From assembly GCA_965153455.1 (NCBI GenBank), contig OZ234493.1:26092213-26156212 (forward strand): a stretch of DNA of 64,000 bases. Reading direction: 5' to 3'. The stretch's first letter is position 1; every line of letters begins with the position of its first letter. The notes under the pieces are model-generated. The model was given only the letters and a program-made list of their open reading frames with translations, was not told the origin of the DNA and searched no databases. The position numbers and the translations under genes are program-made. The stretch is from Sphagnum compactum. Lineage: Eukaryota. Below are positions 69 to 30,221 of the stretch, one piece after another.

Positions 69-1637
69 GGGTGGACAGTGTGGGAACAGTTCCAGTGTCA
101 ATGTTGACATACGCATCCATTGTGTCTCTTCATCCTGATTTGATCATTAATGCAGGCACAGCTGGTGGATTCCAGGTCTCTAGATGTTACCTGCATTAGC
201 ATACCTTGTGTGGCTAAATGTTCTGGTCATCTGTTTTGGAAATTGTCTTCAAACGCAAGGGATGATCTGTGATATTGATGCACTTAGCTTTGGTGGGAGG
301 ACTTCATTGGAAGGATGCCTCTTATTGCCTAGAGACTTATATGATCTGGGGATTGTGGCATATTGACTGCAATTGATGTACTCACTGATATTCGTGGGCA
401 TGGCAGTCAAAAGGTGCAGCTATAGGTGATGTATTTGTGGCAACCCAGTTTGCAAACCATGACCGTAGGATACCTGTTCCTGTATGTATTGACTATAGCG
501 AATCCTCTCCTTGCCATTTTTTGTCAATGGACTCTGCATATTGGTGATAGTAGGTATTTGGTTGCTGCTGAAATGCTGTTGGGGTTGGTTATAGGTTTTT
601 GATGAGTACGGGATTGGAACTCTTGGAGCCACTCCAATACCTAACCTTGTCAAAGCTCTTGCACTCAAGGTGGGTAAAAGTCACATATCAACACTGTACA
701 TGCCTTCCATCATCTGTTGTGTGCATTTTAGTTGGTCTCCTTTCTTCAATCCACTTAAAGGTTTGTGCCCAATAATGTCCATAGCTTCTGTCATCTGTTG
801 CATGCATCTAAGTTGGTCATGTTCCTTAATCCACTTCAAGGCTTGGCTCCAACAATGTTTTCCCCTTGCTTATAGTTCAGAGAGGACTCAACTGCCAGAA
901 AACTCAATTTATGTTTGAAGGACTTCCATTCTAGATTGTTGCTGGAGGCATATGCATAAAAAAGCACCTTGCTTCTAGTCACATTCAGTGTACACTGTTG
1001 TTGAGAATCTGGATAGCCACACAGAGAGAGAAAGCCCTGAGCACCCACAAACCTTAAAATCTAGTACACCTGAAATGCTTTTCTTTATGCTGTGGCATTG
1101 GCAAACTTTTTCATGATCATCACCAGAATGACCATCACAGAGACTGAAGCTTATTTTATGTTGGTTACTGTTGGTAATACCAGGAGGGTAAGATGTCAAC
1201 AGGGAACTCCCTTGACATGACCCCACAGGATGAAGAGATCATAAAGGCTAATGATGCTACAATCAAGGACATGGAGGTCAGTTTCCATATCACTCGAAAG
1301 CACTTGCATGTACTCATTCATTGTGTGAAGTCTGTAATTGCAAATGTTTTGATGTGCAGTTGGTACCTGAGAAATCCTGTGAAGGAATTGGGTGCTACTG
1401 TGGTATGTCATGCATGAAAAGCATTTGTGTATGGTGTAGGGTGCTGCAGTAGCATATGTGGCTGACCTGTTCACAGTCCCTTTGATCGCACTGAAGGCTG
1501 TGACTGACATTGTGGATGGCAGCAAGCCCACAGTAGAGGAATTCTTAGAAAATATGTCAACAGCAGCAGCAGCACTATCTGCAATGGTACCCCGTGTTCT
1601 CAAGTACGTGAGTGGGAAGAAGATAGCTGATCTCTGA
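69..1637 (+). CDS. MTN: 5'-methylthioadenosine/S-adenosylhomocysteine nucleosidase, 3' part (5' end upstream of window); exons ~69-175, 407-481, 595-669, 1184-1276, 1440-1637
   Basis: Spliced translation GVDSVGTVP..HPDLIINAGTAGGFQ / SKGAAIGDVF..HDRRIPVP / STGNSLDMT..ATIKDME / GAAVAYVADL..KAVTDIVDG..EEFLEN, all with GT-AG borders; matches the plant MTN family. Confidence 0.93.
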
Positions 1638-4391: not shown

Positions 4392-7300
4392 ATGGCGGTC
4401 GAGTCAGGTGATCTGTCGAAGCCCTTGCTAAACGTCTCTAAATCGTACGAGGAAGAGCACAGGAATCTGCTTGGTAGCTTGCAGACAGGCAAGGATGGAT
4501 TGCTGGCAGCGGCAGGAGCGCATACCGGGCTCAGCTATTCTCGGACGCGTACTCTTCTCAGGCAGAGGCAGAGACGGAACGCCAGTGAGCCTAGAACCGA
4601 GTCAGTCTTGTGGAAATCGTTGATGTGGCCTATCACGAAGATCATGGAGATCGAAAGGATTAAAACTCCTGTAGCATTGCCGGTGAAGGCAGGCCTTGCA
4701 GCTCTCCTTGCGGGAATATTATGCTTCGCTCCTGGCGCTCTCAGTCCTCTCAACAAGAACGGTGTGTGGGCCGTCGTTACCGTGGACATTGTTCTCGAAA
4801 CAAATGTCGGCTTAACATTCAGCAAAGGTACATTTTCCATCAATCTTTGTCTCACAATTTTTCAGGGCGCATTTGAGATGTCTGATCAGATTCAAGAATT
4901 ACACATACAGAGCTCTTGCTTTACACCATTCTTCAGGTTGCATTTTGAGATGTCTGGCTCACAATTCTTCAGGGCGCATTTCAGATGTCTGATGATATTC
5001 AAGAAGAATTCAGATACAGGGCTCTTGCTTTTCACAATTCTTCAGGGTGCATTTGAGATGTCTCTGATGATATTCAAAGCATACATATACAGAGCTTTCT
5101 TGCTTTTTCTCCACATTCAATGACTGACCAAAACTGGATTGTGATGTTGAAAGCAGAGTAAAGAAGAGAAAGCAGTTTTGTTTTGTTCACATTATATATC
5201 TTTTTAAAGTTCTGATTACAGAAATTCTGATTTGCTCCTCCTTTCAGGTTTGAATCGTACACTGGGAACATTGCTGGCGGCTGCACTTGCAATGGGTGTT
5301 GTTTTGTTGGGACAGTACCTTGGTAGCTATGAGAATTACTTTCTTCTCTTGTGCACATTTCTTGGAGGTGCAGTTCCGACCGCGTTCAAGTTCAGGGAAC
5401 CTTTCAAAGATCGATGGAATTATGCTGTGGTCATGTCTATGATCACCTTCCACCTTCTAATCCTGAGCCAGAGTGACCGCAGTGCAAAATTCACACTTCC
5501 CCTGGTTCGGTTTGGGATGATTGTGATTGGGTTTGTCATTGCAGTTTTGGTGAACATTTTGCTCTTGCCAAATTTTGCTGGTAATAATGTCAACAATCTG
5601 CTTGCCACCAACTTTGAGCGTGCTGGCAATGTGGTGGAGAAGTGTGTAGAGGAGTATTGCGAAGGCACCGTGCTGGCTGACATCTCCAATGTCTTGAGCC
5701 ACACTACAAACGATGAATTGCACTTGAGCTTCCATGAAATTGTGGCAGCAGAATCCGAAGTGGACAAGCTTGTTAGTGCCTAGTTACTCAAGCCTCTCTG
5801 GTGTGTGTATGTGTGTGTGCACACATGTGTAGTCAGCATTGAAATGCTGCTTCTGTCTGTGCATAAATGTGTAGTGCTTTTACAATCTTTGCAGCTGAGC
5901 ATTTCTTTTGCACCTGATTTTGTTGGCTGTGTCCTGAAATGTCCACTGCAGTTGGTGGCAGCCAAATCTGAGCCCCCACATGGCAAGTTCTTCTTCAGAT
6001 ACCCATGGCATATGTATGAGGAGGTGACAGAAAGCCTGCGCTTCTCTATGTATGATGTGGTGGCATTGGATTCATGTCTGCGTGCTGAGATTCAGGCACC
6101 TTTGAATCTGCGTACTTTGTTCAGAATGCAGTTTCTGGCTCTTGGCAAAGAATGTGCAGAGTAAGCTCTTGCTCCTTCTCTCATTCTGAACTTGGTCTAC
6201 GGCTACAGCAACACAAAAAATACTCTTTCAATCCTGCTCTTTTGTCTTTAGATTCTTCGCTCTCTCACTTGAGATACTTTTACAGAGCTAGCAGCTGGTT
6301 GTTCATACTTTGTCAAGCCCTTTGGTGGATAGACATTGGTATCATGACATTAATGCCCAAGAAGTAAATTCAATTACTTGTGAGCAGATCTTGATCCTTG
6401 CAACCAGCCAACTGGACTGTTGAATCTGCTGCATTAAGTTCCATACCCTGATGTGTGTGCAAACCTGACAAAAGAATCCTTGAGGGTGAAAAAATCCTGT
6501 GCTGATATTGCTGAAGGATTAGGTGAGCAAAACAATGGCTAGGAATAACATGGGACCATTCTCTCCAGATCAGAAGCTAGGGCCACCATTCTGTCACATT
6601 CTCCCTGGATCCTTAGACTAATCATTGCAGTGTCCAGACTGACAAGGTGCAAAGTCTTCCAGGTGCAATCTGTGAACTTCAGAACTGAATTCACAGCAGC
6701 CACTGATCCTGATATTTGTTGCTCAAGGATGCATTTGACAAGAACTCAGTAACTGAAATTTTATGCAGCTTTTCAGGTTTTTGTGGTGTGTGTGTACAGT
6801 GTCTTTCGAGCATTAGGGAAGACAATGCGCAATATGGAACGAATTGACACCCAGCAGATCATGGAGAGGGCGGAAGAGGTGGCCATATTACTGCAACATA
6901 ACCTTGCCAAGCATGCCAATATCTTGCTACTAGGAGCACCATGCCCTGGGCCTGCTGGAACACCTCTCAATGAAAACACACAACGGTTCTTAGCAGGATT
7001 ATTCAATAATCCAAGTGCACCATCTGAAACTACTGATGACAATTCCCATCCAGAAACCGTGCAGGAGGATCTGCAAATTGAACAGTATGACCTTAATCTG
7101 CTCTTGTTTTATTGTTTAGTTTGCATTGCTGTATGGCAGTAGGGGTGATTAGAGCCATAAGAAGTTCTTAGTTTTCAAGAATGCAAGATGCCGTAAAAAT
7201 TGTTTCCTGACCCATCCTCACTCACACAAGGAGCAGTAACAAAGTGCTAACACATCAGTTTGTGTGCAGAAGAGAAAATCAAATAGAAAAGTCATTGGAA

Positions 7301-7564: not shown

Positions 7565-8019
7565 GGTTCTCTTCTACCGAAAACCCAGAGGCAATCTGTT
7601 AAAGAGTACAAATATCGAGATTGCTCTTGTGTAGCTAAATGTAGTTCTAATGTATAGTCATTTACTGCACTGATTTGTGATCAGAATGCTAAAATCTTCA
7701 GGCTCATGATCATTGTCTAGATGAACTCCTTTCTCGTTCATGGTGCCTGAAAATGCACAAAGTTTACAACTTTTGTTGTAAGCGTACTGACCCACTTCTG
7801 TAAGTCAATCTAACAAGCCTCTTTCAGTTACACATAAAGTTTAAATCTTAAACCCTAAACTCTGAAAAGAAGCCTTCTGATGTAGAATCAGTGAGGATAC
7901 TTGTACTGTTAGGTATTGACAAAAGTTTTTTTACTTTTGTATTGTTGTTTTTTCAAGTTATTTGGCCTGTCCAAGTTGCAAATATCATCTGGCAAGGATT
8001 AAGTATTCTATATAGGGTA

Positions 8020-8130
8020 TATAGGTAGCTGTTCTACAGGTTTTTCAGGTGTCTTGAATGGGCAGAATCGGCAGTGGTGGCTGATTCAGTGATTAGCTAC
8101 CTACCCACAACACTGCTGATTCTCCAGGTT
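8020..8130. repeat. Dispersed repeat; inverted homologue at ~60,680-60,830
   Basis: Reverse complement of 8020-8086 (ATCAGCCACCACTGCCGATTCTGCC..AAAACCTGTAGAACAGCTACCTAT) matches ~60,760-60,822. Confidence 0.65.
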
Positions 8131-9148
8131 CCAACCCACCTCTACTGCTATTTCATACTTTCCAGTGAATTCTTCATGCCAGGTAAAAACTAAAACCGTC
8201 ACTTAAGAGGGTATATTCTGCCACCTAGTTTGTCGCTAGGACTTGGCCTTTATGCAATGGGAGGCAGCCCTAGGGTGCATTCTGCCTATTAGTTTGTCCG
8301 TAAGGCTTATAGCCTGGATGTGTACATAAATGACTGTTGCAAGGATCCATCAACAGGCAGCTGTTAAGAGTTTGATTTGCACCAGGGTTAATTACTCTTA
8401 ATTAACCTGGTTTTATTATCACCCATAATCAGAATTGAGTGACTTCACAGTTCACACCTTATGAACAATGTAATTACTTTAGTTTATAGGTTTTTTTGGG
8501 TGACTTTGTCTAAGGCTCTTCTTTTGTTTTCTTTTTCTGTTGTTTTTTTTGGGTGTTTTCTTTCCACCAAATGTCTGTTTTTTCCTTTTCTTTTGTGGTT
8601 AATGGAATTGAGCCAATGTCTTGTACATTTCACCAAACATGAATTGCTGAACAATATATATTTGCAGCATTTTCTTCCTTTTGAATACCTAGTGGTCATT
8701 AACCTTAGTAATTTTCAGTCTTTGCAAACCACTCAAATTAACATCTTAAAGTTAACTAGCAGATTCAATTTTGTGTGTAATGGTATCCTTTGTTGTTACA
8801 TAGTGGCCTTGTTTTGCACCCCCTTTGTGGGACATGTAACAATACACGCACAGTATGATTGATTCAATAATTTATCAACTGCCTGCCCGAGGTCCGATCA
8901 ACCCAAACCTATCTTGCCCAAAACATTGACCATGGCCAATATTATCAGCAAACTGTACCCTAAACCAAAACTGAAATTATTTTCTAAGATCCCACTGATC
9001 ACAAAATACTTAGCACATTCAAAATAAAACATAAAGTCTGTTAATAATAAAACCCAGAAAAATAAAGCAAAGTGAAACACCACACCACTTAGGACTCAGC
9101 CCCCATTTATTTTTGTGCAAAATTTTGCCCTGTTGTGAATTTTAGGAA

Positions 9149-9199
9149 CTTGCTAATGGTAAAAAAGGAGCCTTAAATGTAGGAGCGGTTCTTATTTTA
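9149..9199 (+). pseudogene. petA: Plastid cytochrome f fragment
   Basis: LANGKKGALNVGAVLIL. Confidence 0.88.
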
Positions 9200-9276
9200 A
9201 ATGTAGAGAACAACAAATGTGGGAAACTTTGAGAGATTATCTCGATTTGGTAATAAAAATTAAAATAATTTTTATT

Positions 9277-9305
9277 TGTCGCAGGTTCGAATCCTGTCAT
9301 CCCTA
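9277..9305 (+). pseudogene. trnP: Plastid trnP 3' half
   Basis: GTCGCAGGTTCGAATCCTGTCATCCCTA T-arm and acceptor stem. Confidence 0.7.
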
Positions 9306-9334
9306 CCCTGAACTCTATATATTGTAACATTGTT

Positions 9335-9361
9335 TACCGGGGGTTCGAATCCCTTTCTTTC
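9335..9361 (+). pseudogene. trnS: Plastid trnS 3' fragment
   Basis: TACCGGGGGTTCGAATCCCTTTCTTTC. Confidence 0.6.
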
Positions 9362-9410
9362 TTCAGCACCGTAGAGCGCCTGGTACTCGGACGTTGGCTT
9401 GAGGTATTTT
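9361..9410 (-). pseudogene. rrn23: Plastid 23S rRNA fragment
   Basis: Reverse complement AAAATACCTCAAGCCAACGTCCGAGTACCAGGCGCTCTACGGTGCTGAAG resembles plastid 23S. Confidence 0.7.
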
Positions 9411-9654
9411 CGCGTGAAGTAAATTCTCGCACCTACGTTATTATCCAATTGGAAGAAGATCAAAGAACTCAAAATAAAAAGTATGGGGCCCGTATTTTGA
9501 ATACCTCATTTAAGAAATTTTTTTTTTGTATTAATAAATTTCAGTGAGTGATCTCGCGAAAATATCGATGAAGTGAAAAAATTATCGGTGTGCTGACCAA
9601 ATGGAGCATCTCCTACCTCATAAGTCAGAAGAACAATCAAATAAAATGTAATTT

Positions 9655-9820
9655 TTTGGTGGAACATACAATTTCGTAAATTGAGGTTTATTAATGATTA
9701 GATATTCATGTAACTGAACGAGGAATTTTTTCACTTGACCAGTTTCTAATACATCTAAATATTCATTTACTCCAATATAAATAGTAGCTACTTGTTCTTC
9801 TACTGTCAAAGGTGCTGACA
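9655..9820 (-). pseudogene. atpA: Plastid ATP synthase alpha fragment
   Basis: [47 protein letters not shown]. Confidence 0.9.
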
Positions 9821-9864
9821 TCCGCCACAGGGTAAGCCACCATCTTTCAGGCCTCTCTGATCGA

Positions 9865-9923
9865 TTCTAAAAGAAGCTATTAAAGAACATACTGAAATTT
9901 TTTTACTTCAAGGAGATAAATAG
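9865..9923 (+). pseudogene. atpA: Plastid atpA extreme C-terminus (opposite orientation to the neighbouring atpA piece)
   Basis: [19 protein letters not shown]. Confidence 0.75.
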
Positions 9924-10016
9924 AGGCCTCATTCTTTTGGGAATAGAGAGGCAGTAAAATAAAGAAATATTTTTTCGACTTTTTTATCCTCGTTCATTCC
10001 CGATGGGAATTTTCTA

Positions 10017-10178
10017 ACCTCACGGGAGGTTTTAAAAAGCCTCGTGAATTAACGTGGGTTACTGGTGTAATTCTAGCTGTATTAACAATTTCTTTCGATG
10101 TAACTGGATATTCCCTGCCTTGGGATCAAATTGGTTACTGGGCCGTCAAGATCGTAACCGGTGTACCTGAAACTATTC
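10017..10178 (+). pseudogene. petB: Plastid cytochrome b6 fragment
   Basis: [51 protein letters not shown]. Confidence 0.95.
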
Positions 10179-10271
10179 TTATTAATATAGCAGATCAAAT
10201 TTTATCTCAACCAGAAGGAATTATACAAGAGAAGTTCCGGATCGAGAATTATTTAATCTACTCTCCGACTT
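10179..10271 (+). pseudogene. chlL: Plastid chlL C-terminal fragment
   Basis: [27 protein letters not shown] with frameshift. Confidence 0.82.
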
Positions 10272-10368
10272 CCAATCTTCATTCCATTCAGGAAGTTGAA
10301 ACAATAATGAACGAACAATATTTTTAGAAATTATTAATATGGGTAATACTAAATATTTCTTGAGGTAC
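10272..10368 (-). pseudogene. ycf1: Plastid ycf1 fragment
   Basis: [32 protein letters not shown]. Confidence 0.85.
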
Positions 10369-10535
10369 AATTGGATAATCAATAACCAACTTCTTCACCA
10401 TTGAGCTAATGGAAAATCCCATCTATTTGCTATAGCGAGACGGTCCGCTTTGAAAAAAGTTCCACCACAAGGGCAACGTTACCAAAATAGAATATCTGTC
10501 TTTTTGAAAGATGTTGGGTCTTGGGTGGTCCGCCC

Positions 10536-10774
<239 letters not shown>

Positions 10775-10802
10775 TAAAAATGGATTAACCCCACACACAT
10801 AG

Positions 10803-10890
10803 ACGCCCAATCATTCCGGATAACGCTTGCATCCTCTGCCTTACCGCGGCTGCTGGCACAGAGTTAGTCGATGTTTATTCCTCAAATACC
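10803..10890 (-). pseudogene. rrn16: Plastid 16S rRNA fragment
   Basis: Reverse complement contains GTGCCAGCAGCCGCGGTAA..GGATGCAAGCGTTATCCGGAATGATTGGGCGT. Confidence 0.92.
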
Positions 10891-11371
10891 TATACCTGTA
10901 ATCGAAGATTCTACAATTCATACTATTTCGAGTTTAACTCATCTAGCCAAAGGGGTTATGGAAGGACACTCCAATTCGATTATGTTTATTTTCTTCGATC
11001 CAATATTCAATTCGTATTAATCAAATTGCTTCCGCTCCGAGAACGGAAGACTGTGTTGGTAGTATCACTCCCCAAAATGATGATTGGGAATACCAATTCG
11101 ATTCCATTTTTTTGAATGATTCTAAAGAAAAAATCAAAATCAAAATCGAAGGAGCAGATCCAAATATTAGAGGATATTTCATTTATCAAAATCAAGATTA
11201 GATTTATATTGGATCGCCTCTTGCGAAACAAATTTTGAATTGTTTAAGAAATATAGACAACTCTTATAATAAGGATTGGAATTCCACTTATTCTAGTATC
11301 CTTCCGCATGCTTATAGTATTTCACGAATAAATAAAATGGGAAAAGTTTCCTATGGTCTAGTTTTCGATAG

Positions 11372-11428
11372 GAGGATTTGGCATGTATGAATAGATTTTG
11401 GTTCAATACAAGTAATGGAAGTCGATTT
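11372..11428 (+). pseudogene. ycf1: Plastid ycf1 C-terminal fragment
   Basis: EDLACMNRFWFNTSNGSRF. Confidence 0.85.
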
Positions 11429-11469
11429 ACCTCCCCATGATGAGTAAGTTAAGAAAAGGCTCTTGTAGG

Positions 11470-11525
11470 TACCCACTCCCTTCTCAGAGAACCGTACGTG
11501 ATAGTCTCCTATCATACAACTCCAT
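11470..11525 (-). other. Organellar group II intron domain V fragment
   Basis: Reverse complement GAGTTGTATGATAGGAGACTATCACGTACGGTTC, a decayed GAGCCGTATG..CACGTACGGTTC. Confidence 0.75.
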
Positions 11526-11555
11526 CTTGAGATAGCCGACTTGTAGTTTTATTGG

Positions 11556-11622
11556 GCCGAAATACAAAGCTTTGAGCACCAATAGGAAGGCACCAACACC
11601 TAACAAAATTAAATGGATACCC
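11556..11622 (-). pseudogene. psbC: Plastid psbC fragment
   Basis: [22 protein letters not shown]. Confidence 0.88.
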
Positions 11623-11721
11623 AACGATTGTATTATTAAAATTGGCTCGAATATGAATAACTCTTTTAGGTATTCTACGTCTTCCTTTACGTAAACTAAT
11701 TTTCTTTACAAGTTTTGTCAT
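11623..11721 (-). pseudogene. rps11: Plastid rps11 N-terminal fragment
   Basis: [33 protein letters not shown]. Confidence 0.88.
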
Positions 11722-11912
11722 AGTTATTCTTGCGTATATGATTTAGAAATCGGAAAAAAATATTAAATATATAATTTATTTTATTATTTTTATAGTAGGA
11801 GACTTCATTTGTTATGGTTATGAATTGCCAGTCTGAATGGCTTCGAGTAGAACCCATAATAGGGTCTCGAAGTTTTTTTTTTATAAATAATATCACTAGA
11901 GGTAATTTTTTA

Positions 11913-12021
11913 ATGACAACTTCTTACTTACCTTCCATTTTTGTGCCTTTAGTAGGTCTGGTTTTTCTAGCAATTACAATGGCTTCTCTCTATATATATG
12001 GAACAAGACAAAATAGTTTGA
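11913..12021 (+). pseudogene. psaI: Near-complete plastid psaI copy, frameshifted near the end
   Basis: [35 protein letters not shown], preceded by GAGG SD-like motif. Confidence 0.9.
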
Positions 12022-12030
12022 TTTTTGATA

Positions 12031-12218
12031 TTCACCAGGGCTTCAATCGCCGGCTTCCCTGTCATCAGGTCACCACTTCCTTAACCTTCCGGCACTAGGC
12101 AGGCGTCAGCCCCCATACGTGGTCTTACGACTTTGCGAAAACCTGTGTTTTTGGTAAACAGTCGCCTGGGCTTGGTCACTATGACCTCCTCTGTGAGGAG
12201 GTACCCCTTCTCTCGAAG
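12031..12218 (-). pseudogene. rrn23: Plastid 23S rRNA fragment
   Basis: Reverse complement has CGACTGTTTACCAAAAACACAGGT..GGGGCTGACGCCTGCC.AGTGCCGGAAGGTTAAGG. Confidence 0.92.
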
Positions 12219-12353
12219 GTTATTTGTATAATTTCCAATTTATAGCTCTGTTTTATCTACCAAATAGAAGGTCTCACTATCTGTAATGAAAGACTTCTCC
12301 ATCCAGTAATGACACATTATTTCGGTTCAAATTCGTATAGCCTTAAACCTAAA

Positions 12354-12384
12354 AGCTTCTCCGACGGTATGCCTCTAGGAATTT
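12354..12384 (+). pseudogene. psbA: Plastid psbA fragment
   Basis: SFSDGMPLGI. Confidence 0.75.
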
Positions 12385-12835
12385 ATGGTACTGTGTACCC
12401 CAGATTTAGGATTGGTTATCAAAATCTGATAGCGGGAGCAAAAGAAAAATGTATGAAGTGATTACAACCATACTTTTATTTGAGCAAAAGTAAATGCGTA
12501 AATCGAGACATCAACGTAATTCAACGCTGGTACTAGATACTTTGCTATTGAAAAGATATTTGGAAATGGAAATATTCCCTCTATTCCTATTATCTAGATC
12601 AATATATTTCACCAAACTAATTTGGAGAAAAGTTTTAATTATTTTGTTGATTCTTACATCTACATTATTTTCTCTCAATAATCATGATTTTTCATCAATA
12701 AGTTGATGATTATTCCATCGATAAATAATGAAAAGTAGGGGAAGAATTCTTATCATTAGAAATCTTATCAGTAGATATAAATAGGAACCACGAAGAGAAA
12801 CAATAGAAAAAGAGCTCCAGTATAAAGATCCTGAT

Positions 12836-12967
12836 TGTCTTACCACGACTGCTGGCACAGAGTTAGCCAATGCTTATTCCTCAGATACCGTCATTGCTTC
12901 TTCTCTGAGAAAAGGAGTTTACGACTCGTGGGCCTTCTACCTCCACGCGGCATTGTTCCATCAGGCT
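12836..12967 (-). pseudogene. rrn16: Plastid 16S rRNA fragment overlapping the piece at 10,803
   Basis: Reverse complement ..CAATGCCGCGTGGAGGTAGAAGGCC..GCAATGACGGTATCTGAGGAATAAGCA..GGCTAACTCTGTGCCAGCAG. Confidence 0.92.
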
Positions 12968-12971
12968 GTCA

Positions 12972-13045
12972 TGCATCTGACAGGAGTGGAACCTGCGAAT
13001 TCTCCAATTATGAGTTGGGTTCTTTAACCGCTCAACCACGGATGC
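12972..13045 (-). tRNA. trnI-CAU: Plastid-derived trnI(CAU), full length, mutated (probably non-functional)
   Basis: GCATCCGTGGTTGAGCGGTTAAAG..CCCAACTCATAATTGG..GGTTCCACTCCTGTCAGATGCA. Confidence 0.8.
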
Positions 13046-13096
13046 TATTGCTTCAATTCATTATTAGTGGTATATCTATTCTTTGACAAATCCTAC

Positions 13097-13166
13097 TACG
13101 GGTAGCGGGAATCGAACCCGCATATTCTCCTTGGCAAGGGGAATTTTACCATTAAACCATACCCCC
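13097..13166 (-). tRNA. trnG-GCC: Plastid-derived trnG(GCC), near full length
   Basis: GGGTATGGTTTAATGGTAAAATT..CTTGCCAAGGAGAATATGCGGGTTCGATTCCCGCTACCCG. Confidence 0.82.
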
Positions 13167-13459
13167 AACTATCTCTTGTATTTATTCCTTATTATATTAA
13201 TACATTTTTCTTTATATAGTCAATTTTTCCTTAGGGTTCTTTCGGTCACTCACCAAAAAGCTGGAGAAGGAATAAAAGCCCTCCCTGGAGTCCATTTATT
13301 TCATACCTCGGGACTTGTACTTGATCGAGGGATTGTATATAAAAGCGAGGATCTTTTTCCAAATGAAATACTTTCTTCTTTTTTTTTCTCGTTACATCCA
13401 TTTTCGTGCCGTTATATAGAAGAGTTCGAAATAAATGAAATGGAGACAAAATAAGGAGG

Positions 13460-13560
13460 GAGCCACTCTCCTTGTTTTTATTAGGTGGAATACAACGAAT
13501 AGTACCTTGATGTTTACTAAGTAGTTGGTTTCCACCATTAGAATATTGGTTGTGCTTCAA
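13460..13560 (-). pseudogene. rpoC2: Probable plastid rpoC2 fragment
   Basis: NQLLSKHQGTIRCIPPNKNKES resembles the rpoC2 QGTIR segment. Confidence 0.55.
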
Positions 13561-13583
13561 ATCGAATATGGGATTTCACGGTT

Positions 13584-13676
13584 CTAGGGGATAGGGTAAA
13601 AGTAGAATTGAGTCCCTATGATCTAACTAAAGGACGTATAATCCATCGACTCCGTACCAAATCTCCAAATGGTTAA
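13584..13676 (+). pseudogene. infA: Plastid infA C-terminal fragment
   Basis: [30 protein letters not shown]. Confidence 0.9.
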
Positions 13677-13707
13677 ATATTAAAACGTCTGATTCATAGA
13701 ATACGTT

Positions 13708-13854
13708 GGAGAGAGATTTTACCCCTGTAACTACTAGTATAATAGATTGTCACGTATTAGCACGTGGATCCCAAGAAAAAGTAATTGGTAATATAACTCG
13801 AAAAGATAGGGAAGAACACCCAGATTTAATTGTATTGACACCCACATGTACCTC
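13708..13854 (+). pseudogene. chlB: Plastid chlB N-terminal fragment
   Basis: [49 protein letters not shown]. Confidence 0.93.
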
Positions 13855-14050
13855 TCCCTCTTTACTATTGAGGTCTCCATCCGATCTAATAATATTTTTT
13901 GAAGAGAAAGAATTATTAACTGTATCTATTACGAAAGACCTCCCACCCCTTATTTTTTATACTATGTACGTGGGGAGAGAAGCAAACAGAAACATATAAA
14001 ATTGGAATTTCCGGTTTCATATAAATTTATTTAGATTGGGTTGACAACAA

Positions 14051-14103
14051 TAACCATTTATGGATTAGTCGTAGCTCTAGCACCTTTATTTGCAAATCCT
14101 TTT
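14051..14103 (+). pseudogene. atpH: Plastid atpH C-terminal fragment
   Basis: TIYGLVVALAPLFANPF. Confidence 0.88.
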
Positions 14104-14317
14104 GATTAATTACTAATTTGTGTTCGAAGGCTACCTCGTAATTATAAATTAGTAACCTCCTCTAAATAAGTAATTAACCAATGAATTCCTTATATTAGGG
14201 GAGGGACTGATCATAATGAACAATAAATAAAATATCTTTGTATTTTTCGATAAAAAGGATTTATTATTTTTGTATCACAGGGAGCAAGACACAAAAGGGT
14301 ATATCCAATTGTATTGC

Positions 14318-14411
14318 GGGGAGTAGGAGTAATGATATCGTCTACAACGCTTCAGCTACAGGTAAAGTCAATAAAATTATACGTAAAGAAAAAGGTGGAT
14401 ACGAAATAACC
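14318..14411 (+). pseudogene. petA: Second plastid petA fragment
   Basis: [31 protein letters not shown]. Confidence 0.9.
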
Positions 14412-14610
14412 ACAGGGAATATCAAGACGTTTACCAATATGACGTTCCATTTGAGTGCCAAATATGGCAGATGGTTCTACACGAGCAATCATATCTCCTA
14501 CTTCGGTGTGATTGTCTATAATTAATATTTCATCACAAAAACCTTGAACTTGTTCTTTGAACCATTTTGCATCATGTTTGCAATAAGTACATGCACAACT
14601 AACTCGAATG
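14409..14610 (-). pseudogene. chlB: Plastid chlB internal fragment
   Basis: [46 protein letters not shown]. Confidence 0.93.
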
Positions 14611-15260
14611 TTCAATTGATTAAATTAACCAATGGAATGATTAGATGAAATTGAAATATCGGGGGGCATTAATTCAAATAAAAAGAGGAAGAAAAGAGAA
14701 ATATCCTATACAAAGATTGAATCTAGGACTCTATTTGCGAAATTATATTCATGGGTTGCAATCGTAATAATTTTTTTGAAAAAAATTATCATTATTACTA
14801 GAATTCGCATTGATTCGGTAGTGATTTACATCTACAAGAATCGGATATAAGCTTTCTGAATTTGTCACTTCCTCCAGGACCGAGGTGTGTTTTTGGATGT
14901 ACCCTACGAAAAAAGATTTAAATAAATTCGACGTATTTATCAGTAGTGAAGATACGACATTCGAAATGAAATTTTTGACTCATCCGCAGTGGAAGAAGTA
15001 TATGGCTAAAATGGTTCAATATTTTTTATATCACTTCGGGAACATATGCGAGCCACAAAATGAAAATGGAATTATGATTAAAAAAACAGTGATATATTTG
15101 TAAAAAGAGATATTCCACCTATGCTATTTATTATGGAAAGATCTCGGTAGTTTTCGATTATTATCATACTTGGCCTTACTCGATGAAATTGCTTTTCACA
15201 AAATAATTTTTTCCTTTTTTTGAATTAATCGAGCCGGTACATACAAATCCGACGAATACG

Positions 15261-15343
15261 TTATAAACTAAATCTACTATTTGATTAATACCTTCATAGC
15301 GCAAGAAGGGTCGATATCCTAGAGGAAAATTTTGAATATGAAC
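15261..15343 (-). pseudogene. chlB: Third plastid chlB fragment
   Basis: [27 protein letters not shown]. Confidence 0.88.
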
Positions 15344-15439
15344 ATACGATATCTGATTTATTATTTATAAGTTTTTTCTGGGGGGTATCCTATTTATAAA
15401 AACTATAAAAATAAAATATAAAATTATTGGGTTGCCCGG

Positions 15440-15564
15440 TTACGGATATAGGTAAGCGTCCTAAAGCAATTTGATCATAATTTAATTCGTGACGATCATA
15501 AATGGAAAGTTCATATTCTTCAGTCATCAATAAACAATTCGTGGGACAATATTCGACACAGTTT
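15440..15564 (-). pseudogene. ndhI: Plastid ndhI fragment
   Basis: [41 protein letters not shown]. Confidence 0.92.
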
Positions 15565-15600
15565 TCGTAGGGGCAAATTGAAATGGAAAGGAGAGTTAGT

Positions 15601-15696
15601 GAGCCGTATGATGGGGGACTATCTTGTACGGTTCGGAGAGCACTTAGTAGGCAGGAGTAAATGATCACTTTCTATCGAAGCTTGACCCTATCTACT
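15601..15696 (+). other. Organellar group II intron domains V-VI fragment
   Basis: GAGCCGTATGATGGGGGACTATCTTGTACGGTTCGGAGAG..GACCCTATCTAC. Confidence 0.8.
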
Positions 15697-15847
15697 ATGG
15701 TTTTCTTTAGTATTTTTTTTTTGAAAATAGGTGATCTTAAGGCGGAACGCTCCCCTATCGATGTATTTTGACCAAAAACTTATAAATTTTATTCTATTCC
15801 ACACACTATATGTAAATTTGTTTCTTCAGTAGTTTACTCAATTACTC

Positions 15848-15919
15848 GCCCCTTTAACTCAGTGGTAGAGTAACGCCATGGTAAGGCGTAAGTCATCGGT
15901 TCAAATCTGATAAGAGGCT
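15848..15919 (+). tRNA. trnT-GGU: Plastid-derived trnT(GGU), full length with a few transitions
   Basis: GCCCCTTTAACTCAGTGGTAGAGTAACGCCATGGTAAGGCGTAAGTCATCGGTTCAAATCTGATAAGAGGCT. Confidence 0.85.
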
Positions 15920-15998
15920 CTTATTATTTCTTGTGATATAGTCGGAAGAAACATATAGAATTGGGAGAAGAAAAGGAGGTAAAAAAAATGGGAAGTTA

Positions 15999-16046
15999 TG
16001 CATTGGTAAATCCATGAATCTGAGCAAAAGTAAATTCAACAGACCA
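15999..16046 (-). pseudogene. chlN: Plastid chlN fragment
   Basis: WSVEFTFAQIHGFTNA. Confidence 0.85.
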
Positions 16047-16315
16047 TAAGTGTTAATGATATTTCGGAATAAAATTTCAGGTACCTAATTGAATTGAGAA
16101 AAAAAAACGCTGATATGGATTCCCCTAACTGATTTCCCACTACCTCACTACTTCATCCACCAAAACCACCGGGCAAGGTTTTTCAACGATTCATGCACCA
16201 TAGGTAGGTCCAAGTATCTAAATCATTTGGGGTTGTTTCAATATAAATGGATTTTATGGTATTTGGTAAGAAGAGTGTTTGACAATTTCTGGTACTCCAC
16301 TTATTTCATAAAGTA

Positions 16316-17960
16316 TCTTTCTTTCTTTCTTTCTTTTAATTTAATGTCAATACGCGGACCAGAGAGATCCATTTGACGACTATTACCTAGTTGATTTGAG
16401 CAAAACACTCCTGTTGTCTAGGCAAGAAACTAAGTACAAAGCTATCGCTTTCTGAGTAGCCGAATGCATCAATTCAGGCAGTAAACTGCACGGTGTCAAC
16501 TGTTTCCCTAGCTGTTGACTAAACTTGCAACGAATGTCATGGTGAGCTGGGCACACTAGCAACAGGTGGTCTTCATCCTCAACAGCTCCTAGGGAACACA
16601 GGCGACAAACCCTATTTCTCCTTGGTACACTCTCAGGCTTTGCATGCCTGCCACACTCTACCTCCAAACGATGGTTTGAACATCTGAACCTTGAGAAAGA
16701 TTGCCTGAGCTGAACATTTGTGATCACTTGCAAATAACTCTGATGTGCATATGAATACCCAGATTCTGTTGTACAGCTCGTGTTCATCAGCTGGTATGTA
16801 CGTAATCTGCTACTTTTGGCTCTGGCCTGTTCACCATAAGTGGATTCTAGATAAGAAGCCTGTGCACTTGCTACAACACACATGACATTAGTATAGAGAA
16901 CCCCAACCCCTTGGTCGTCAAGCCATAACTGCACGTTCCGGAACCAACACTGTTGGTTATCATTGAGCACACTGAGCATCTGGAGCTGGGTCTGGTAGGC
17001 AAAGTACAACAGACGATCTGGTGTGGACTCCCGTAGTCTATCATAATACTTGAGAGTTTGTTGCCACCAAAAATACTCCAATGGATACCTTCCAAACTCC
17101 CCCAACACAGCAAAAGTGTTTGTTGTCTTATTGACCCCTAATATTCCTCTCAGGAACATTCTATGTACTTGTTCTGCTTGTTGCAACCCTTTCGCCCCTG
17201 TACAACCTGTCCACACCTCGCATGCATAGCTCAGTACTGGGCGTACCAGTGAGTCGAACAACTGACACATTACTTTCGGATCTGTTATGCTCAGATCATT
17301 GCATATGCGGTGTAATGCAAACAATGCCTTCTTCCCAGCAGCAGTCAGTTTGTCTATGGCTACTGCCATGCCTCTTGTACTATGTAACTCTAAGCCCAGG
17401 TATCTAAATGATTGAACCTGCTCAATGGTTGTCCCTCTGTATGTGAACTCTGGCGTCGCACTGTGGCATTTCTCAAACACCACCACCTTGGTCTTGCTCA
17501 CATTGATGACCAATTGTCGTTCAACACAAAACTCAGATAGAACATCTATTTGTTTCTACAACCCTTGTGGGGTCTCTAACATAAATGCCAAATCATCTGC
17601 ATATAGCAATTTTTTGACTACTATGTCTGCCAGCTATGGCGGGTTGTCGCCATCAAGTGCATCTAGATGTTTCTCAAGTCCATCAAGGTAGAGTCCAAAA
17701 AGCAGTGGGCTTAGTGGACAGCCTTGTTTGACCCCAATGCCACATGAGAACCGGGCTGATAGCCCTTTTGTTGGATGCATAACTCTGACGCTGTCCTGGC
17801 TGTACATGCTCTGTAGACACTGCATGAAGCGACCCACAATTCCCATCTCAGCCAGCACCTCCCATAGCAGATCACGAGGCACTGTATCAAAAGCTTTGCG
17901 AAAGTCCACAAAACAACGATACACCTTTTTGCGTTTGTGAGTGCTCTGTATCAAGTACCT
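16316..17960 (-). mobile_element. 5'-truncated non-LTR retrotransposon (RTE/RTEX-like), decayed
   Basis: RT motifs FVDFRKAFDTV, GVKQGCPLSPLLF, LLYADD (two in-frame TAG stops near YADD), C-terminal CRLC..EDEDHLLLVC zinc knuckle, (GAAA)n 3' tail at ~16,316-16,336. Confidence 0.9.
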
Positions 17961-18107
17961 ATCGAAATAGAATCCGCACAAGGAAATCCCTATGGTTTTT
18001 ATCACAAAAAAAAAGGGTAGAATCTTACTCTTGATACTGACGGATAAATCATTGTGACATATCCAAGCGGGATGCTCGTGACGTGTACATGTAAGATAAA
18101 CCAAATC

Positions 18108-18188
18108 TGTTAACCTTTTGAACTGTTGCTGAATTCATAGGCAGGCAAGAGACAACCTGGCGAACTGAAACATATTAATAGCCAGAGG
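18108..18188 (+). pseudogene. rrn23: Second copy of the plastid 23S 5' region fragment
   Basis: Near-identical to 10,578-10,651 but retains the ~7 bp between AAACAT and AGCCAGAGG. Confidence 0.88.
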
Positions 18189-18222
18189 GGAGGTGACGGG
18201 GATTCAAATTCCCCTGGGGGTA
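18189..18222 (+). pseudogene. trnE: Plastid trnE 3' half
   Basis: GGAGGTGACGGGGATTCAAATTCCCCTGGGGGTA. Confidence 0.78.
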
Positions 18223-18477
18223 CTTGGAGAGAAATTTTCCCTCGTTTCTTTTGTCCACTTATTTTGTAATAAAATTGAAAATAAGGAAATCTTCAAATTC
18301 GACCAACTCGCCCGCCATTACTTTGTCAAAACTCTATGTATCTATTTCATATTTATGATGAAGTTCATTTTCGTAATAAATTTTTTCCTTGTAATGTACC
18401 TGCCAAGAAGTTTATTCAAGTAATATCGAGACTTGCTTGCTATTCCATAGACTTGTAGACTAAAATTGGAAAGTACC

Positions 18478-18551
18478 GCATCTTGAATAAGCCAACTTTT
18501 GGAAGGTGCTGTTAGAAGATCATCAATTCCTAATGGAATAGCTGCTTGTAA
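18478..18551 (-). pseudogene. rpoC2: Plastid rpoC2 N-terminal fragment
   Basis: [21 protein letters not shown]. Confidence 0.88.
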
Positions 18552-18573
18552 CGGGCAAAAGTAAAAGCATATG

Positions 18574-18674
18574 CCAGTCACAATAGCACCAAGTACTTCA
18601 TAACGGGAACGAATATGATCGGATTTTATGATAAGCATTTCTTGTAAGATATAAGCAACACCGAAACCTTCTAA
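18574..18674 (-). pseudogene. rpoB: Plastid rpoB fragment
   Basis: [34 protein letters not shown]. Confidence 0.9.
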
Positions 18675-18799
18675 AGTCTAATCGTCTTCATCGTCGTTCC
18701 ATGAAGACTTATGTGAAATCTTCCAAAATATTAATTGGTAGAAGCACCGACTCACAAAATCAAGAGTTAGAAAAAAAGGAAATCGTCATAAATCAAGAA

Positions 18800-19310
18800 A
18801 AATTTCAGCAAAAGCTTTAAAAATCACGAAATTATTTTTCAAGTAGGTAGCCAAATATGTACAAGGCAGTTAAATTTTTTCCTTCCATATAATGTTAATA
18901 TCCAAAATTGTCTAAATTGGATTATGGGATGATCACCACCACCTCGGCTACATCACAAAATTGAAAAATAGAACATTGGTTAGGATGCCAGGAACTAGGA
19001 ACCCTATAGTGAATCTCTAGACTAAAACCAAGGGATGTTGCAATGTACTCTACAAGCCTTTTTTTCGAGTGCAAAATTGTTGAAATTTATGTCGCAAATT
19101 CAATCATTTTTTGAAAAAAAAATTGCCAAAAGAATTCGGAAAAATCGAAAAATTCTTTACTTTTTTTTCCCATGCACTGTTCCAGTGTATAGTGAAATCT
19201 ATATTATTAAATTATTTTTTCCTTTCATATTTTTAATAGCCAAATTTGGCTAAATCGGCCACTAGATGATCATCACCTTGGTACATCACAAAATTTTTAA
19301 AAAACATTGG
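18800..19310. repeat. Two adjacent copies of a nuclear dispersed AT-rich repeat
   Basis: Shared end CCAAA.TTG.CTAAAT..GATGATCA.CACC..TACATCACAAAATT..AACATTGG at ~18,900-18,980 and ~19,240-19,310. Confidence 0.6.
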
Positions 19311-19691
19311 TGCACATAAATCCTAAACCCCCATACCAAAATGAGTTTGGGAGGGGGAAAAAACAGCAAAAGAAAAACCTGAGGAGGATTTTTGAAAATT
19401 TTGAGATACAGAAAATTTCCAAAATATTAGAAAATTACTCAAATTTACACCAGAGAAACAAAACTTCGCAATTTATTTTTCGAAAAAATGACCAAATTTG
19501 TGAGGAAAAATAAACACTGTCACGTTATGGAAATTCATGGAAATAGAATCCACATACCATTAAAAGCTTAAACCCTAGACCCCAAATCCTAAATCCAGTC
19601 TTGCAAAGAAACAAGAATAGCGAAATACACACAATCTGCAATCCGTTGTTGTTGCAGGTTTTTTTGCTTCGATTTTTGACAAAGATTTGCA

Positions 19692-22056
19692 ATGGCTGTA
19701 GTTATGGCGGGTGCTAGTTTCTGTTTGCCATTGCCAGTACGAGCCTCAGGAGCTTTGTTTCTTGCCTCGTCGCCAACTGTTGCTGTTTCTTTTGGTGCTT
19801 TTACTTCTTGTCCGCAAATGTCACATGACATTTACGTTTCTCTTCAAAGCTTTTGTAAACCGTGCATGAATTAGGTTTGCATTGTGTTATTTCTTTTTGG
19901 TTTCTGCTGCTCTTTAGTACCATCTGGAATGCTTGGGAGGTTGTTGAGCGGGCTCAGTTTCAGTTTTATCGCTTGTTTTAGGAAAGGCTTTTCCCTTCTT
20001 GGAGTCTTTAGTTTTAAGACAAGGTTTTGAGATATGAAAGGATTTGCGGCTTGTCAACAGGCTTTAGCAGAGTTGGATTGAGTTCTCGACGTGCTGATGC
20101 AAGAAGATCCGGCCAGCAACGCAGTTTATCAATTCATGCACGGGTGCAAGAAGTGGACTTGAGTAAGGTTGACTACTCAAGTCTTTCCTCGTCACTATGT
20201 CATAGTGACAATACAGTTGAATTTGTATAAACCCTTGCCAGAGTCACCTCCCCCGGAATCTAGCACTAGTGTTGTAGTCCTAGCAGGGGGAGGTGACTCT
20301 TGCTCTTCAATTTGGCAATAGCAGTTTTCAAGAGAGTCTATTTTTTCGGTCTCCCTCCTGAATTGTCAAGCACTCAGAGAAAATTCCTAGTGCATTTGAA
20401 GGGCACCTTAAGGCTTATATCTCTGAGCATCCCTCCTAGAAAAGAGGAGATATCTTCTGCTGACTCCTTGAGAATGGGAGGGAAATTACACCTAATTGTA
20501 GGCATAAGATCCATTCCACCTTTAAGGAGTAGGTCTAAGAACTAAGAACCCTCCCCCTCCTATGCCACATGATCTACATATGTTTTTCATGAAAATTGTT
20601 AGCGTCATTCCTTATGATGGGTAAAGCCCATGGGTGCAGGACATTCCTCAAATGTGGGGCTGAACTCAACCACCACTTCATCCTTGGCTCCTTATTTTGG
20701 GAATGCCCCCACCCTGGGGCTTTACCCTGCAAGAGTCTTTGGATTATGAAAATATTCTTGTTCCATTTTATCTCAGTTTTCTTAATCATGAAATTCTTGA
20801 GGGGGGATGATGAGCAGGTTGTTCCCCAGGCAGACAGAGTATTGGTACGCCTTGAAGAGTTGCCCAATGTAAGGAGTATTGGCAGTAGTTTTGTTTGTTT
20901 ATTGTTTTACACTGTCTCTTGTTTGATGTTGCATCATCATTCAAGCATTTTTCTGGTTTTGAGTTTTGGTCAATCATTTTCTTAGCTCATAAGAAAAACA
21001 CCTCTGAGACAAGCCAGATGTGCTTTCCATCTATCATTCAAATTTCTTTGCAGAAAAGTGCTGGTGGAGTGTTGCTACCAAAGTCAGTTACCAAATTTGA
21101 GAATTATCTTGTTGGAGAGGTATGTGAACGTTATCATCCTACTTTGACAGTTGTAGTCTCAATAAGGTGTGTGAATGAACCTTATCTGGATGCACTACAT
21201 CATGAAGCATTCTCATGTCAAAGACCTGTGTGTGTGTGTGCAATTTTTGCCATGTGAGTTTGCTAAAAAATGTTGATGGGAAACTCCAAGAAGGTACCTT
21301 GACAGTTGTGGTCTCAATATTGACGCAGGTCATATCCATTGGGAAGGAGGCCACATCCATAGAGAAGGGACAAAAGGTATTTGAGTCTCCACTTGGACAC
21401 TTGCTACAACTTGTGGAGTTTTGGAACTAAGTTATTCTGGCACAGTGCTGTTAGTCCTACTTAAAGAGGTGTTTGTTCAAAGGCATTATTATTCATGGAA
21501 TGACCTTCTGGGTGGGCATTCTGTTTTGTGAAATGCCCCCATGCTGGGCAGGCCTGTATTGCCTGGCGTGGTGGGAAATTTTGTTTTGTAATTTCTGACC
21601 TCTGCCTGTATCGGCTCACCTTGATCATTATGCCAGGCAATGCCCTGCTGCCAGGGTGTTATCCTACACATGATGCAAGAGCAGTGCTACAGCTCTTGAA
21701 CTCTATACACTGGAATGTTTTCTATCTTTTAATTCAATTTGACCTCTCTGCAAATGCTCACCTTAGTAACCTTCTGTTGTTCCATGTCACTTCAACTTTG
21801 CAGGTCCTCTTCTCAGATATCAATGCTTATGAGGTATGGCAGGAGTGGACATGACATGGATTCTGTGCTTGACTTATTTTCCACATGAGCAAAGCTGCAT
21901 TTTGTCTATTCTGCACTAGTGTTGGCACCTAGGTACTGTTATTTCTAAGACAAAGTCTTACCCACATCTTTGTTTTATCCATGGCAGGTAAATTTGGGAA
22001 CACCTGAAAAGCTGTGTTTCTGCTGCATCAGTGACTTGCTTGCCATTGTCGAGTAA
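19692..22056 (+). CDS. CPN10: Chloroplast-targeted 10 kDa chaperonin; exons ~19692-19795, 20040-20167, 20818-20868, 21054-21119, 21328-21376, 21804-21833, 21988-22056
   Basis: Transit-peptide-like N-terminus, then VVPQADRVLVRLEELP / KSAGGVLLPKS..YLVGE / VISIG / VLFSDINAYE / VNLGT..CFC..DLLAIVE*. Confidence 0.9.
20619..20727. mobile_element. Hairpin MITE-like element with GGGTAAAGCCC termini in a CPN10 intron
   Basis: GGGTAAAGCCC...GGGCTTTACCC; related element at 60,917-61,019. Confidence 0.6.
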
Positions 22057-29934: not shown

Positions 29935-30090
29935 AGAACCAAAACCCTAATTCTGATCAGGTCGATTATAATAGAGAACCAAAACCCTAATGCTGATCAG
30001 GTCGATTATAAGCGAGAACCAAAACCCTAATGTTGATCAGGTCGATTATAAATAGAACGAAAACCCTAATGTTGATCCGGTCGATTCTAG
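29935..30090. repeat. ~40 bp tandem repeat x4, each with a telobox AAACCCTAA, in the EXO84 promoter/5' region
   Basis: AGAACCAAAACCCTAATnnTGATCAGGTCGATTATAA units at ~29,935, 29,975, 30,015, 30,054. Confidence 0.88.
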
Positions 30091-30221
30091 CTTATAATCG
30101 ACTATAATTTTGCTCCGTATAAGCAGGCCCTATTGCCATAATAACTAAACATTCCAGTGAATTTTCCGGTTATTCAGGAAACACCCGGTTACCTTGGCGA
30201 GCGTCAGTCTGAAATGCCTGG

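Follow-up and report, generated by a model that had tools for sequence, protein, structure and literature searches.

We analysed a 64-kb stretch of DNA from the moss Sphagnum compactum (hereafter the window), in which a mosaic of small plastid-derived pieces extends from ~9149 to 18712-18750. Exons of an ALMT-family gene lie on its left flank, and a truncated non-LTR (long terminal repeat) retrotransposon of the LINE (long interspersed nuclear element) kind lies inside it, with a block of plastid pieces on either side. The mosaic is a bona fide NUPT (nuclear integrant of plastid DNA), and its type is the rearranged, non-collinear one. Our main reading, to which we give a probability of about 0.6, is that one or a few molecules of the plastid genome (plastome) were broken, rejoined randomly in one event and fixed at one chromosomal break.

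The mosaic lies in nuclear DNA

We compared the window with assembled contigs of three sequencing runs (X2, X5 and X15) and with raw 151-nt Hi-C reads of another (X24, coded organism F), an approach that we call contig placement, and judged coverage by contigs in 400-bp bins. X2 contigs of 34-40x depth match the flanks at 8000-9178, 18720-18968 and 18939-20000 with 3, 0 and 3 differences, respectively, which amounts to 6 in 2490 positions (0.24%). These nuclear-depth contigs end at plastid-like DNA (9178) and restart beyond it (18720). All bins at 9203-16420 and 18025-18826 are instead covered by contigs of organelle depth (~1000-6000) in X2, X5 and X15, as against a depth of ~35-90 for contigs in the flanks; some contigs are shallower (~370-1300 in X2). 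From the match of the flanks to nuclear-depth contigs, the ALMT gene and the LINE reverse transcriptase, we conclude that the locus is nuclear chromosomal DNA of the moss. About a fifth of the region's 31-letter words are present in each of 20 sequencing runs (maximum, 0.23), which carry either the label "moss metagenome" or that of one of seven coded organisms (A-G).

The original prediction, made by a model from the letters of the window, had set the limits of the block at 9149-18800 and named CPN10 as its right-hand neighbor. Its left edge agrees with the X2 contig that ends at 9178, while the right edge had to be moved to ~18712-18750. The neighbor was not recovered: open reading frames (ORFs) of the right flank gave no GroES/CPN10 match with Pfam or NCBIfam, and Pfam returned only a weak and unrelated DZF_C match (E 0.006). 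A transposon that captures fragments was also considered and rejected, self-comparison having found no terminal inverted repeats or tandem structure at the block borders.

Plastid pieces in scrambled order

Plastid RNA and protein families are represented in the block. Rfam gave eight matches at the gathering score, all within 11437-15920: 23S and 16S rRNA, three tRNAs, two pieces of group II intron domain V/VI and a plastid 5' untranslated region family, the last antisense over tRNA-Met. ARAGORN called three intact tRNAs, Met-CAU (12972-13045), Gly-GCC (13096-13167) and Thr-GGU (15848-15920). Protein families were sought with Pfam and NCBIfam in single ORFs and in six frames translated through with X at stops. 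Clear pieces of atpA, atpH, petB, psaI, infA, ndhI, rpoB, psbC, chlN and chlB (three pieces) were found on both strands, and petA, psbA, psaC, rps11 and a second, C-terminal chlN piece matched weakly (E 0.002-0.05). NCBIfam was the more sensitive of the two collections; on whole frames, Pfam gave only three families on the forward strand. Solved structures, searched with a single frame that had X at stops, gave 0 matches; such a search is too insensitive for pieces of 20 amino acids.

We then tiled the window directly by BLAST. The plastome reference consisted of five moss loci (L001-L005) from metagenome contigs, retrieved by an exact 24-letter pattern. L002 and L003 match the window at 99% identity over 201 nt and jointly hold ~11.6 kb of plastome; exact-pattern scans of genome contigs and viral contigs gave 0 matches to additional plastome contigs. 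Seven window pieces map to these ~11.6 kb. They measure 35, 37, 40, 56, 68, 132 and 197 nt (mean, ~81 nt; median, 56 nt; five of the seven below 100 nt) at 96 to 100% identity, and their borders are sharp, identity falling away over a few bases on either side. By the L002 hits, four share one orientation and three have the opposite one; their order is scrambled, and together they retain ~5% of the tiled stretch (565 of ~11,600 nt). Nothing in a control stretch of the same length (30000-40000) matched the plastome loci better than E 0.45, and the remainder of the 64-kb window had a single match (28587-28669, 70% identity, E 0.002). Contig placement lists larger pieces of 139, 201, 229, 236 and 271 nt. 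Family matches, tiled pieces, joints and loose ends combined give evidence for at least 40 pieces, and we extrapolate to roughly 60 to 100 in the ~8 kb. No non-plastid filler was detected between pieces at 400-bp resolution.

Homology to the plastid genome, the hallmark of a NUPT, is thus seen in organelle-depth contigs, in the tiling and in rRNA, tRNA, intron and protein families. The pieces come from diverse plastome regions, in mixed orientation and in an order unlike that of the plastome, as in rearranged, non-collinear clusters. Tiling, family matches and contig placement therefore bear out the claim of many tiny plastid pieces in both orientations without plastome order, and the tiling check that had been proposed yielded short, sharp-ended, scrambled pieces (35 to 197 nt). 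The accompanying list of genes held in part. All ten genes with clear pieces, 16S, 23S and the group II introns were recovered from it, petA, psbA and rps11 only weakly, and petG, ycf1, chlL and rpoC2 did not appear.

Distant pieces share breakpoints

Contig placement also showed which pieces are neighbors in the plastome. At least nine pairs that are distant in the window abut in plastome contigs, five of the nine within single raw reads of X24; among the best 15 of 126 joints, nine had no unknown sequence between the pieces. Three abutting joints join pieces of the same strand. At 13548|12526 there is 0 nt between them (13 raw reads); at 14052|15801 there are 11 nt, as three contig sets, 51 raw reads and, independently, L003 (7883 then 7899) show; and at 15343|14410 there are 16 nt, in 39 raw reads and in agreement with the residue numbering of chlB (383 then 387). 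The other six join pieces of opposite strands: 9205/10774, 9675/9864, 10271/10738, 10742/17989, 10898/15444 and 11792/13676. When independent random pieces were simulated, 0.6 to 1.9 abutting pairs were expected, with probabilities of 0.0008 to 0.05 for five or more and of at most 0.0005 for nine or more. This excess argues that many of the pieces are neighbors cut from the same parent molecule.

The joints carry information on order as well. One of the nine is collinear, two have their order swapped and six lie on opposite strands, which fits a random 1:1:2 split (p 0.75) and matches the random order and orientation of chromothripsis-like loci. Nested insertion would leave collinear halves; hence, the 1:2:6 split argues against it.

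Dose was assessed by self-comparison. Only two segments are present twice (repeats D1 and D2), both of them rRNA. The rRNA genes sit in the plastome inverted repeat and so have two copies per molecule. We take D1 to be a 5' segment of 23S, a label that comes from no tool. Independent sampling would give 2.6 to 3.8 overlaps of single-copy segments, and the simulated probability of seeing none is 0.02 to 0.08.

The pieces have diverged from the plastome

The block differs from the resident plastome, as a NUPT should. Eleven pieces differ from plastome contigs at 34 of 1378 sites (2.5%), evenly across the pieces by a chi-square test (p 0.56) that has low power and mixes three reference sources. 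Over the whole stretch compared with X2, LINE and flanks included, there are 376 changed places, 275 of them transitions; in 173 of these the window has A/T and the contigs have G/C, and in 102 the reverse. Transition-rich change toward A/T is the decay expected of methylated nuclear DNA. We conclude from the divergence and its transition-rich character that the block is an old insertion and not a misassembly.

Two further observations concern decay. The 16S copies at 10837-10890 and 12836-12889 are 87 to 88% alike, with seven differences that are all transitions. Decay seems to be faster in these GC-rich rRNA pieces than in the AT-rich spacer pieces, whose divergence from the plastome is 0 to 3%.

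A LINE fragment splits the mosaic

The LINE fragment, which is absent from the original prediction, ends in a simple-repeat tail at 16316-16340 and holds a long ORF (16383-17555, reverse strand) and a reverse-transcriptase domain that starts near 17942. Unlike the plastid blocks, bins 16421-18024 are covered by many repeat contigs, and relatives of the element are very abundant in all four runs compared. No clear target-site duplication was seen flanking it. In the contig placement, pieces to the left and to the right of the LINE occur on the same plastome contigs; hence, the left and right blocks are one mosaic.

Feature coordinates and surroundings

Table 1. Pieces of the plastid mosaic and its neighbors, in window positions
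Feature	Position	Strand	Evidence
ALMT-family nuclear gene exons, left flank, outside mosaic	4293-5780	+	Pfam ALMT E 1e-31, 3e-8
Mosaic left block, ~7.2 kb	9149-16315		Organelle-depth bins; X2 nuclear-depth contig ends 9178
56-nt spacer piece	9521-9576	-	L003 7325-7270, 96% identity, sharp ends
atpA piece, residues ~426-474	9672-9864	-	NCBIfam atpA 9672-9818; Pfam ATP-synt_ab_C E 3.5e-6; ends 9675, 9864
petB (cytochrome b6) piece	10019-10271	+	NCBIfam E 6e-22 at 10019-10183; Pfam Cytochrome_B; joint ends 10019, 10271
rRNA-like twice-present piece, copy 1	10573-10651	+	Repeat D1; high-depth contig crosses 10572; parent piece reaches further left
chlN N-terminal piece, residues 7-40	10655-10756	-	NCBIfam E 6e-8
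16S rRNA piece, copy 1	10803-10898	-	Repeat D2 with Rfam-supported 16S piece; loose end 10803, joint 10898
Group II intron domain V/VI piece	11437-11524	-	Rfam RF00029, 42.8 bits
psbC piece	11550-11630	-	L002 1037-1104, 98.5% over 68 nt; NCBIfam psbC E 0.014
psaI piece	11922-11999	+	NCBIfam PS_I_psaI E 1.3e-10; Pfam PSI_8
23S rRNA internal piece	12031-12241	-	Rfam LSU 77.9 bits over 11929-12241; loose ends 12031 (taken as left end), 12218
139-nt piece; in plastome directly after 13320-13548 piece	12526-12664		X5 and X15 contig, 0 nt between; 13 raw reads
16S rRNA piece, copy 2	12826-12946	-	Rfam SSU 66.5 bits
tRNA-Met(CAU) and tRNA-Gly(GCC)	12972-13167	-	ARAGORN; Rfam tRNA
229-nt piece, plastome neighbor of 12526-12664	13320-13548		Contig placement
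infA piece	13584-13652	+	NCBIfam infA E 1.4e-7
chlB piece, residues 49-98	13709-13851	+	NCBIfam DPOR_BchB E 5e-14, match 13709-13858
201-nt spacer piece; plastome position 11 nt before trnT piece	13852-14052	+	L003 7687-7887, 99% identity
atpH C-terminal end and downstream DNA	14053-14321	+	NCBIfam ATP synthase subunit C residues 61-80, 14044-14103; X15 contig 14051-14321
chlB piece, residues 313-384	14403-14618	-	NCBIfam E 9.5e-28; contig piece 14410-14609
236-nt plastome piece, no gene assignment	14882-15117		X2 and X15 contigs, 8-10 differences
chlB piece, residues 387-417; in plastome 16 nt after 14410-14609 piece	15254-15346	-	NCBIfam E 3e-8
ndhI piece, residues 108-153	15429-15598	-	NCBIfam ndhI E 3e-22, match 15429-15566
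Group II intron domain V/VI piece	15599-15673	+	Rfam RF00029, 49.1 bits
trnT(GGU) piece	15801-15932	+	L003 7899-8030, 97.7% identity; ARAGORN
40-nt piece	16244-16283	+	L003 5114-5153, 100% identity
5'-truncated non-LTR retrotransposon (LINE) fragment, ~1.6 kb	16316-~17950	-	RVT_1 E 6e-12 in ORF 17637-18134 (-), amino acids 65-158
Mosaic right block	17989-18750		Organelle-depth bins 18025-18826; true end 18712-18750 (joint end 18712, X2 nuclear contig start 18720)
35-nt piece past LINE; plastome contigs shared with 10742, 13551 pieces	17989-18023		Joints 10742/17989, 18023>13551
rRNA-like twice-present piece, copy 2	18104-18192	+	Repeat D1, 96-98% identical to 10573-10643
35-nt piece resembling tRNA 3' half	18189-18223	-	L003 6066-6032, 97% identity
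37-nt spacer piece	18254-18290	+	L003 6586-6622, 100% identity
rpoB C-terminal piece	18573-18677	-	NCBIfam rpoB residues 1177-1210; Pfam RNA_pol_Rpb2_7

Beside the mosaic, the right flank at 18827-19628 is a moderately repeated element, with an X2 depth of 560-1050 against ~40 for unique flank. The self-joining of its contigs in X15 (for example, 19234>18922) points to a small repeat, either dispersed or in tandem. Farther along the window, 45000-47100 is very AT rich (G+C 0.13-0.24). It contains ~4.8 copies of a 92-bp tandem repeat (46093-46538; 70% matches), and short arrays of the (GTAGGTAA) type lie at 45073-45236 and 45562-45620.

Discussion

How might so many small pieces of plastid DNA have come to lie side by side in a chromosome? 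On the reading that we prefer, one or a few plastome molecules would have been broken into pieces of 35 to 270 bp, and a few per cent of the pieces would have been religated randomly by end joining. The religated array would have been fixed, in one event, at a single chromosomal break downstream of the ALMT-family gene. A LINE copy would have inserted later, and the block would since have undergone the decay usual for non-coding nuclear DNA; we imply no function for it. A stricter version is possible, but we hold it tentatively, at somewhat less than even odds: one plastome molecule or genome-equivalent may have been shattered inside the nucleus to ~35 to 270 bp and a few per cent of it religated at one break, a natural "chromothripsis" of an organelle genome. 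Consecutive pieces with 0 to 16 nt lost between them, and duplicates limited to genes of the inverted repeat, would be traces of such shattering.

Several points weigh against this account. No read or contig of nuclear depth was seen to bridge the internal junctions, so that the contiguity of the block is inferred. None of the seven tiled pieces falls within the 4.9-kb large ORF of L003, an outcome with a probability of ~0.02 under uniform sampling, which argues that the plastome was sampled patchily. (This frame, at L003 2-4903, has 1633 codons, is open at its 5' end and is a candidate ycf2-like gene by size and position.) The two copies of repeat D1 (10573-10651 and 18104-18192) seemingly have a common right end despite their different neighbors. 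Independent breakage would not predict this; a breakage hotspot, a copy-paste step or mere chance may lie behind it. The data impose their own limits. Direct tiling covers ~11.6 kb, or about 10% of the plastome, and the non-tiled evidence rests on the best 15 of 126 joints and 24 of ~6300 pieces. The sizes of the plastome and its inverted repeat were assumed rather than measured for the simulations, the divergence figures pool three plastome sources (X2, X5 and L002/L003), and the total number of pieces is an extrapolation that gives ~100 from the tiled mean of ~81 nt and ~57 from all observed sizes.

Perhaps a large NUPT was scrambled after it had integrated? A collinear insertion of tens of kilobases would then have been rearranged and ~90% deleted in situ, by local shattering or by successive rearrangements. 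Abutting breakpoints and a single age would fit this scenario equally well, the ~5% retention of the tiled plastome is compatible with it, and the available text of PMC12863932 lists post-insertion rearrangement among the accepted origins of non-collinear clusters. However, all 400-bp bins of the plastid blocks have organelle depth, with no pieces of nuclear flank or non-plastid filler evident, and the neighboring ALMT exons are still a strong match to their family. Dozens of rearrangements within 8 kb would be needed, and stepwise change would leave residual collinearity, whereas order and strand are random among the joints. We consider scrambling in place unlikely. Breakage may have come before integration or may have struck a larger integrated copy; the absence of filler at 400-bp resolution and the strong ALMT exon match speak for the former. 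The tiny, disordered pieces on both strands, their direct joining, the shared breakpoints and the homogeneous divergence fit the single event of breakage and rejoining that had been proposed better than they fit many separate captures. The original prediction also named programmed plastid-DNA degradation, such as paternal plastid elimination, as one possible source, and siRNAs as a possible product of the locus.

Other routes fare worse. A break hotspot might have taken up numerous small, unrelated fragments that came from many copies of the plastome, either simultaneously or by repeated insertion; the pieces do come from widely spaced plastome genes, and hotspots and simultaneous multifragment capture are discussed in the available text of PMC6215612, PMC12863932 and PMC7037861. 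Yet the abutting pairs far exceed what independent sampling would yield, single-copy segments never occur twice, divergence is homogeneous, and only one of the nine abutting joints has the collinear layout expected of nested insertion, all of which makes this origin improbable. We likewise give little credence to a patchwork synthesized by a repair polymerase that switched among plastid templates, by microhomology-mediated break-induced replication or as polymerase-theta-type filler. Short templated runs and two duplicated segments would suit it, and the common right end of D1 could mark the end of a template or a point of repeated switching, but the exact abutment of distant pieces (0, 11 and 16 nt lost) is predicted by broken ends and not by free switching.

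The LINE raises the further idea that its reverse transcriptase, whose domain is present inside the mosaic, joined cDNA copies of plastid RNA fragments by template switching. A LINE-mediated chimeric retrocopy would hold its pieces in a single sense and 5' of the LINE. Here petB, psaI, infA, atpH and one chlB piece are on the forward strand and atpA, psbC, ndhI, rpoB, chlN, two chlB pieces and the rRNAs on the reverse strand; most of the mosaic is 3' of the LINE, where switching would not place it; and spacer and intron pieces are present. Given this mixture of senses and the position of most pieces 3' of the LINE, we strongly disfavor an origin mediated by RNA or by the LINE. Could the block simply be an assembly artifact, plastid reads stitched into a nuclear contig? 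In its favor, no long read was seen to span the block, and Logan contigs break at the block edges. Nevertheless, the pieces differ by ~2.5% from plastome contigs of the same run while the flanks differ by 0.24% from its nuclear contigs, the changes are mainly transitions skewed to A/T in the window, a diverged LINE copy lies within the block, and assemblers do not shuffle at the scale of 35 to 270 bp. An artifact is therefore very improbable.

The locus belongs among NUPTs of a described kind. Rearranged or non-collinear clusters and mosaics are standard NUPT classes in the available text of PMC7037861 and PMC12863932. That of PMC6215612 cites Noutsos et al. (2005) for mosaics of 3 to 92 kb with up to 100 segments and gives concatenation before or during capture at a break as the current consensus. 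With such clusters and mosaics cited there as described in 2005, the original prediction overstated the novelty of the locus. As these partial texts portray them, the known non-collinear clusters and mosaics (the classes of Leister and of Noutsos et al., 2005) resemble our locus: their organelle pieces are many, stem from diverse parts of the plastome, face both ways and crowd together at one nuclear site. In addition, the known mosaics lack long filler at their joins, and their concatenation is believed to precede or accompany capture at a double-strand break. Mosaics known as numins are defined by a mitochondrial contribution. Compared with what is described there, the present pieces are very small (median of 56 nt when tiled; maximum, ~270 nt) and dense (an estimated 60 to 100 in 8 kb), and the host is a moss. 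The available portions of the reviews PMC12863932 and PMC7037861 mention no moss or bryophyte, and "Physcomitrella" is absent from that of Yoshida et al. (PMC3989485), who noted fragmented, mosaic NUPTs and analyzed only hits of ≥100 bp. Shared breakpoints as evidence for a common parent molecule were not encountered in the accessible parts of the NUPT literature compared.

Two other systems invite comparison. In the available text of bioRxiv 10.1101/379644, arrays in biolistically transformed rice and maize consist of pieces of 31 to 11,387 bp (mean, 410 bp) stitched in all orientations, and earlier work is cited in which 50 of 82 insertions were <200 bp. As described there, these arrays are alike in that naked extrachromosomal DNA was shattered and stitched in a plant nucleus; they differ in artificial delivery, mechanical damage, the frequent admixture of genomic pieces and megabase size, whereas our locus is natural, old, only 8 kb long and seemingly made of plastid DNA alone. 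With chromothripsis or chromoanagenesis it shares clustered breakpoints, random order and orientation and the loss of most intervening DNA, and its pieces may likewise go back to one parent copy. It differs in its organelle-genome substrate, in pieces that are 100 to 10,000 times smaller and in offering no copy-number oscillation to test. A chromothripsis-like reading of the locus has some quantitative support, and no on-topic literature joining chromothripsis with NUPTs was found, as judged by titles and the beginnings of abstracts.

The locus is thus an extreme member of the rearranged NUPT class already known; it reveals no new kind of element and no function. Searches that keep hits of ≥100 bp, the cutoff given in the available text of PMC3989485, would miss most of it, because five of the seven tiled pieces are shorter than 100 nt. 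Organelles still pass DNA to the nucleus, and there is debate over how this happens: whether in bulk or as fragments, and whether joining precedes integration or follows it. In its many small pieces and shared breakpoints, a locus of this sort keeps a compact natural record of a single transfer event. If the shattering reading is true, such loci preserve the processing of organelle DNA en route to chromosomes, and the sizes of their pieces would point to the nuclease or repair pathway.

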